Shown here piece by piece: positions 8,374-8,728 of a stretch of 64,000 nucleotides of DNA. The notes below the pieces were generated by a model, which ran no database searches, was not told the origin of the DNA, and saw nothing but the letters and a program-made list of their open reading frames with translations. The stretch spans positions 115,258,001 to 115,322,000 of the forward strand of contig OZ024743.1 in NCBI GenBank assembly GCA_964016885.1, in the 5' to 3' direction. The translations under genes and the position numbers were made by a program. The DNA comes from Eledone cirrhosa. Taxonomy: Eukaryota. Each line of letters starts with the position of its first letter. The first letter of the stretch is position 1.

Positions 8374-8381
<8 letters not shown>

Positions 8382-8728
8382 AGATCAAAAGATGGTTAAA
8401 GGAGTTCAATATATTTTATTATGCGCATTTCAAAAACAAACATCATCAAACAATAATATTTGTGTTTTCATCAGATAAAACAGGAGAACATGATATGAAG
8501 GCTAAAAAAAACACTTGTTGATAGTGCAGTTTTAAATCAACATATGAAAAGTGGTTTTAGATTGATTTAAAACTGCACTATCAACAAGTGTTTTTTTTAG
8601 CCTTCATATCATGTTCTCCTGTTTTATCTGATGAAAACACAAATATTATTGTTTGATGATGTTTGTTTTTGAAATGCGCATAATAAAATATATTGAACTC
8701 CTTTAACCATCTTTTGATCTTATATTAT
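8374..8728. mobile_element. Perfect inverted dimer of a PLE pseudo-LTR (arms 8374-8540 and 8562-8728) with an HHR in each arm
   Basis: 167-bp arms appear identical; HHRs at 8414-8480 (-) and 8622-8688 (+); homologous to 1133-1320. Confidence 0.9.

Follow-up and report, generated by a model that had tools for sequence, protein, structure and literature searches.

How a retroelement comes to lie in the genome as a palindrome is the question raised by a short insertion in the octopod Eledone cirrhosa. The locus lies in a 64,000-nt stretch of DNA (contig OZ024743.1, positions 115,258,001 to 115,322,000), referred to below as the window. A first-pass annotation of the letters alone had described positions 8374-8728 as a ribozyme-bearing palindrome of a Penelope-like element (PLE), in which two identical 167-bp arms meet at a 5-nt inverted microrepeat. 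It had proposed that an antisense cDNA snapped back at this microrepeat, primed its own second strand and was integrated as a hairpin.

Anatomy of the insertion and identity of its family

Positions 8374-8540 and 8562-8728 were found to be perfectly complementary, forming the described 167-bp arms around a 21-nt spacer (8541-8561). The element does not end at 8728, the right limit first assigned to it, but extends to 8816 and includes an 88-nt tail that had been missed. From 8562 onward, the right arm matches a natural copy, L032, exactly for 255 nt with the tail included, and the left arm has no tail. The insertion is a 443-bp piece of a Penelope-like retroelement, and only one of its two arms is tailed (Table 1). 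Element positions are counted here from the tail end, such that the long end B is 0 and the short end A is -88. The spacer belongs to the tailless arm, which extends 26 nt further upstream than the tailed arm. As first noted, ATCAA/TTGAT is an inverted microrepeat native to the element, at -280..-276 and -254..-250 from the tail end. An overlap of at least 5 nt arose by chance in 41 of 3721 random break pairs in the microrepeat region (1.1%). Repeat-finder output for the window was dominated by (TA)n.

Table 1. Features of the insertion at 8374-8816, its flanks and the older copy at the left edge of the window
Feature	Position	Strand	Details
Tailless arm of older head-to-head insertion, same family	~3..1324	+	L234 comparison
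Left (TA)n flank, target microsatellite	8323..8373	.	
Tailless arm	8374..8566	-	A at 8374; -88 to -280; 100% identical to L032 unit 3647-3839 (3927-nt unit)
Mirror hammerhead (predicted) on tailless arm	8412..8482	-	perfect arm complementarity
21-nt spacer	8541..8561	-	native element sequence, only on tailless arm
Position -259, putative capped start and main family stop point	8545..8545	-	family arm-end counts
Tailed arm	8562..8816	+	long end B at 8816; -254 to 0; exact L032 match for 255 nt, then (TA)n
5-nt junction overlap TTGAT	8562..8566	.	assignable to either arm; inverted partner ATCAA at 8536-8540
Predicted minimal type I hammerhead	8620..8690	+	stem I 8620-8627/8683-8690; CTGATGA 8628-8634; long stem II
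Predicted hammerhead, further elements	8671-8682	+	GAAA 8671-8674; palindromic stem III 8674-8681; predicted cut after 8682
88-nt tail between fixed ends A and B	8729..8816	+	present on one arm only
Right (TA)n-type flank	8817..8990	.	end approximate

The identity of the two arms had been taken as the sign of a recent event. The family is indeed young, and the window copy is identical to its youngest haplotype. Arm identity dates the family and not the event, as 38 other genomic arms are 100% identical across the same 165 bases; for the same reason it is no proof that one arm templated the other. The junction of the window has one exact match genome-wide, and two more matches at two mismatches are different junctions. 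The single locus at 8374-8816 is an ordinary but uncommon junction variant.

The earlier recognition of a Penelope-like pLTR with a ribozyme held up, and a predicted type I hammerhead with a short palindromic stem III was located in both arms. Hammerheads of this kind are known from EN+ Penelope-like pLTRs (PMC6765202). Over 88 variants the hammerhead core was 99% conserved, compared with 91% elsewhere, and stem pairs were kept at 95-100%; two-sided covariation was scarce in the same set. Rfam returned no match to the hammerhead at the gathering score, and at E ≤10 it gave sub-threshold matches only, the best being hairpin-driven miRNA families.

The element belongs to a young Penelope-like family with Hydra-clade features, located in (TA)n, the clade being set by motif description. 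From tandem copies we defined a 3927-nt unit with an 821-codon open frame, which was found in three of the four long copies scanned. Tandem 3.9-kb units are present in L031 and L032, and the partial-tandem arrangement that characterizes pLTRs is thus found in the family. Read by eye, the predicted protein (P0001) carries YRDD and a C-terminal IY..YFG, in keeping with the single RT and GIY-YIG-type endonuclease ORF of EN+ PLEs. Also by eye, and compared with the published description of the Hydra clade, it has DKT for DKG and a CxCX5C linker, lacks CCHH, and has CxxC and CxH around a conserved E and N; the site of the RWK motif reads RWT. The clade is described with DKT, the CxCX5C linker, the lack of CCHH, and the CxxC and CxH motifs in the available text of its description (PMC8557442). 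Feature hits in the ESM Atlas scored 0.96-0.98, and part of the members of those clusters carry RVT_1, GIY-YIG and HTH_animal. A Pfam scan of the ORF gave no significant family, and a PDB sequence search of it gave nothing significant. Counted genome-wide by exact 29-30-mers, young tails number 2,189, A ends 5,617 and B ends that run into TA 7,858. The L032 unit contains, at about -300 to -1000 from the tail end, a 3' untranslated region with two internal pairs of direct repeats, which are ~200 nt long and 80-90% alike; the length of this region differs between subfamilies.

Other repeats occur in the window. Positions 1133-1320, which had been read as a monomer of the element, form the end of an arm in an older palindrome, likewise of this family; the tailed inverted partner of that arm was found in L234. 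In that locus the tailed arm runs from 7074 on the minus strand and the tailless arm occupies 8004-9325, the junction and the tailed arm lying just left of the window. This older A+B palindrome of ~2.25 kb spans the left edge of the window (window 3-1324; L234:7074-9325), 7 kb from the 8374-8816 insertion. On the minus strand, 60737-61013 holds a decayed fragment, 68% similar to the ORF region of the family and probably derived from an older related element. The left flank at 8150-8322 is another old dispersed repeat, ending where the (TA)n starts, with 40 scored matches and an identity of 70-79% for the others.

End pairing, stop points and junctions across the family

The family sample consisted of ~250 loci out of thousands, mostly on contig C1. 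Of the 2,189 tail matches 100 were listed, and 97 of these were examined; the B-end list contributed 60 regions, the A-end list 30 loci and a further 19 regions, and a first DNA search, biased toward full-length matches, 50 loci. Among them were 174 head-to-head pairs, consisting of 165 A+B, five B+B and four A+A, and the tail was on one side only in 165 of the 174. The A+B combination was recovered whichever end had been used for selection (118/123 pairs when picked by the B end; 30/34 when picked by the A end). Counterpoints to this A+B rule are the 9 of 174 pairs that are A+A or B+B and, among 55 ends without a partner, 33 for which at least 3.9 kb of flank was read. Palindromes of 450 bp or less without an ORF made up 103 of the 165 sampled insertions. 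No empty target site was seen among the sampled loci, and target duplication is unreadable within (TA)n.

We mapped 166 unique junctions to the base, 140 of them A+B, and retained 136 (272 arms); four A+B junctions with gaps longer than 35 nt and 26 junctions that were not A+B or not resolvable were left out. Microsatellite (TA)n lay on both sides of 124 of the 136 insertions, eight others being at a locus edge and four one-sided. The tailless arm reached further in 74 junctions and the tailed arm in 23, with 39 ties; in the 107 junctions that were not query-picked the corresponding numbers were 58, 17 and 32. When the tailed arm was longer than 100 nt, the tailless arm was still further in 54 cases vs 23 (p 5e-4). 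The two arms differed in reach by more than 500 nt in 25/136 junctions. Diagnostic differences between arms averaged 0.13 within a locus vs 3.46 between loci (76 loci). No insertion combining two RNAs of different subfamilies was seen in the haplotype comparison of these 76 loci.

Arm ends are concentrated at one place, with 113 of the 272 arms stopping at -255..-261. A palindrome without a loop, its centre at -260..-255, is the most frequent junction and has 716 exact copies. A non-native G precedes -259 in 24 of 34 insertion junctions, compared with 10 of 75 at other stops (Fisher p 6e-9); the native base before -259 is C, which the test for G excludes by definition. Genome-wide, the base before -259 was G in 2,229 cases, A or T in 2,430, and native read-through in 5,603. 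It is the G by itself that points to -259 as a capped RNA start and to the extra base as a copied cap. At 16 loci the tailless arm ends at -259 and the tailed arm stops short of -250, with the G in 10 of the 16. In these loci the tailless arm passes its partner and is therefore no copy of it. At three loci (L137, L140, L188) the G is on both arms. Taken together, the 16 loci and the double G suggest that the arms were reverse-transcribed independently.

A second capped start at -280, where the tailless arm of the window copy ends, was considered and rejected: 71 arms are non-native there and only 11 of these have G, and as at least 22 of 30 inspected non-native arms were point changes in native sequence, the site is also a weak control. 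Position -280 is no stop site of its own. Read-through arms numbered 4,732 genome-wide in a count whose first letter permitted the native base. The predicted hammerhead cut was likewise rejected as the template end, only 2 of the 272 arms ending within 3 nt of it. This scarcity is consistent with in vitro work on the PLE PAc in which, according to the available text, hammerhead cleavage was dispensable (PMC11167929).

Some arms pass far upstream. In L098:1857-4078 and L044:4658-5762, one arm ends near -259 and the other continues far upstream, by nearly a full unit at most; the cDNAs look as though they had been primed in the upstream and the downstream repeat of one RNA. Upstream partial copies in L031, L032, L100, L109 and L110 end at -495, -1218, -540, -223 and -460, respectively. 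These ends, away from -259, require either that the RNA spanned several units or that synthesis jumped from the capped end into the downstream repeat.

Microhomology was examined at the 32 junctions without insertion that lie off the hotspot. Their overlap averaged 2.84 nt vs 0.81 nt under a null in which the breaks were jittered by up to 30 nt (the mean was reached in 0/3000 simulations), and an overlap of at least 5 nt was seen at five of them vs 0.4 expected. The test omits the 61 junctions with insertions as well as L164, whose 28-nt overlap is the hammerhead's own hairpin. Inverted microhomology is thus enriched across copies, as the first-pass annotation had anticipated. As the 3' ends of both cDNAs are antisense, annealing would require an inverted repeat in the RNA, which is the same signature as the one first noticed. 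Inverted microhomology is equally expected from the annealing of two cDNAs and from fold-back in cis.

Inserted letters instead of overlap were found at 61 of the 136 junctions, and 8 of 30 longer insertions look templated by adjacent sequence. At the L104, L135, L232 and L287/L288 junctions the inserted letters repeat the neighbouring arm ends; we take these insertions to resemble templated end joining by polymerase theta. The junction at L164:1437-1464 is centred on the stem II hairpin of the hammerhead and is the only case in which a long self-complementary stretch marks the turn.

One cDNA or two

A cDNA that folds back copies only what it holds, and its spacer-bearing arm must therefore contain the whole of the other arm. 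At the window locus 88 nt of the second arm are absent from the spacer-bearing one. As the spacer is on the tailless arm, the 88-nt tail would have had no template, and fold-back of a single cDNA fails here. The snap-back origin first proposed for this palindrome was accordingly not supported.

We consider it probable, at roughly 0.7, that the 443-bp insertion arose from two reverse transcriptions and the head-to-head joining of their cDNAs at the 3' ends, judging from the sequences of the copies. The RT-endonuclease of the element would cut both strands of a (TA)n tract, after which the two target ends would each prime a cDNA, one at A and one 88 nt downstream at B, probably with a single RNA as template for both. 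Synthesis of both cDNAs would proceed toward the 5' end of the RNA, very often as far as the putative capped start at -259, where the cap would be copied as an extra base. The cDNA ends may then anneal at a short inverted repeat, which would be ATCAA/TTGAT here and, most commonly, the self-complementary ATAT at the RNA start, or may instead be end-joined with inserted letters. Each joined cDNA would template the second strand of the other (mutual fill-in), and the microhomology would be used between two molecules rather than inside one. The tailless arm of the window copy continues 21 nt beyond -259, so its template would have been a longer RNA or a downstream repeat.

The concordant haplotypes of the arms and the excess of junctions with the tailless arm further fit one RNA on which the A-primed enzyme is ahead of the B-primed one. 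Concordance is also compatible with copying in cis, successive subfamilies or gene conversion, and the use of one RNA is the weakest step of the proposal. We give even odds to a stronger version taken as a whole, namely programmed twin priming as the integration route of PLEs. In it, a dimer of the RT-endonuclease would hold one capped RNA in two registers, fixed at a distance of 88 nt, and make one cDNA per target end, such that the thousands of cap-terminated mini-palindromes would come from the same single reaction as the inverted pLTR and the one-sided tail. In vitro, the anole protein had no strand preference for either start site in the available text of that study (PMC11167929), and the A+B rule is thus not predicted by this property itself.

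The alternative that survives best is unlikely. It accepts two cDNAs for the original palindrome and holds that the window junction could derive from a later deletion, in which the centre was removed, between TTGAT direct repeats, from a longer palindrome like L007 (centre at -304). A palindrome of the L007 type does carry TTGAT twice on one strand, and a deletion between them yields exactly the window junction; both arms end between -262 and -310 in 4/136 insertions, and asymmetric central deletions are described as stabilising palindromes in mice (PMC8701086). Erosion of perfect palindromes with age was, however, not seen among 35 older and 48 young copies: perfect-centred palindromes are not rarer with age (8/35 older vs 7/48 young, p 0.39), 716 exact perfect junctions persist, and the window copy is of the youngest haplotype.

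Quite improbable is a hairpin self-primed off the chromosome, for example on antisense RNA, extended past B on both arms and trimmed by the endonuclease (EN) at A and B. Such trimming would produce an A end on one side and a B end on the other regardless of which arm is longer, with shared haplotypes, and it corresponds to the published reading, in so far as antisense self-priming (PMC3846280) and a tail formed by 'EN-mediated resolution' (PMC8557442) are put forward in the available parts of those papers. Against it, the non-native G is located at the 5' end of the sense strand, where a capped sense template would place it, 61/136 junctions have insertions, loops of more than 500 nt would be required in 25, and a relative was shown to initiate reverse transcription in vitro at both boundaries of the tail (PMC11167929, available text).

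Very improbable, too, is the first-pass model itself, in which a target-primed cDNA folds at ATCAA/TTGAT, primes its own second strand and is integrated as a hairpin. The microrepeat is native and overlap is enriched, haplotypes are common to both arms, and the locally templated look of 8/30 longer insertions means that short local re-priming occurs. Four of the 136 junctions have a geometry compatible with it (tailed arm further, loop of at most 100 nt, overlap of at least 2 nt), compared with 11 of 136 that have the opposite geometry, that of the window. Beyond the missing template for the tail, the second strand would have to stop exactly at A; in addition, the tailless arm is further in 74 junctions vs 23 for the tailed arm, the commonest junction (716 copies) is loop-free, and tailless arms bear their own cap-type G. 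A library or assembly chimera arising as a fold-back artefact has a negligible probability, as the inversion stops at the two fixed ends of the element, the flanks differ, the same build is present in 165 sampled loci and short-read contigs, from runs that may come from the source sample itself, have the same class of joint at 8543-8546 with C, CA, CT or CATG between; among the public-run contig pieces listed none bridges the exact junction or near flank, which carries no weight. The public runs listed with a match include no RNA run.

Relation to known systems and implications

According to the available text on Hydra-clade PLEs (Craig et al. 2021, PMC8557442), the family shares with them a single ORF with a C-terminal endonuclease, DKT, CxCX5C, CxxC and CxH without CCHH, a hammerhead, (TA)n targets, an inverted 5'-truncated copy and a one-sided tail. 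It differs from the same description in its 3.9-kb unit (the clade is generally <3 kb), in RWT for RWK, in an 88-nt tail as opposed to 30-40 nt, and in its many ORF-less palindromes of 450 bp or less (103/165 sampled). In PAc, a Poseidon element of the green anole, two RT start sites likewise bound the tail in vitro; both target strands were cut and extended, the target was AT-rich and a dimer was predicted (Frangieh et al. 2024, PMC11167929, available text). That text contains no account of inverted copies, an A+B rule, cap run-off or cDNA-cDNA joining.

The proposed two-cDNA route resembles twin priming of L1, in which the RNA already being copied is primed again from the second target end, yielding a second cDNA, inversion junctions have microhomology or insertions, and run-off adds a cap-derived extra G (PMC11702581). 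Twin priming in L1 is occasional, uses variable internal sites via microhomology and gives an inversion without much duplication (PMC11702581). Here, unlike in L1, neither site varies, the head-to-head outcome is the usual one, and a palindrome results because the two arms span the same sequence. The self-priming model of Arkhipova et al. 2013 (PMC3846280), in its available part, likewise takes palindromic head-to-head junctions as its starting point and places self-priming on an antisense template, whereas the data here favour a capped sense template and two primings. Non-LTR retrozymes, in the accessible part of their description (bioRxiv 10.64898/2026.07.22.740005), are head-to-tail tandem hammerhead units; the units described here are pieces of an element with an ORF, arranged head to head, and do not qualify as retrozymes.

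Inverted pLTRs with a one-sided tail (PMC8557442) and palindromic junctions (PMC3846280) were thus known already in PLEs, and self-priming has been proposed for Penelope palindromes (PMC3846280). The available texts of two studies call the origin of PLE inverted repeats and one-sided tails undefined (PMC8557442, PMC11167929). For PLEs, cDNA-cDNA joining, the A+B rule and cap run-off were not found in the literature searched, which consisted of main texts and included few subscription journals. The structure is known, and the two-cDNA mechanism is what we infer from the genome. The copy statistics argue against the fold-back first proposed and make the open question of integration testable.

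This young family offers thousands of junctions able to separate models of integration. The two-cDNA reading makes exact predictions, namely that reverse transcription initiates at A and at B, that the RNA has its capped start at -259, that every event leaves a single A end and a single B end, and that hairpin products do not form. The genome holds thousands of short perfect or near-perfect palindromes next to (TA)n tracts; these palindromes may act as fragile sites or give rise to hairpin RNA. If the reading is right, twin priming would be the default route for a whole class of retroelements.
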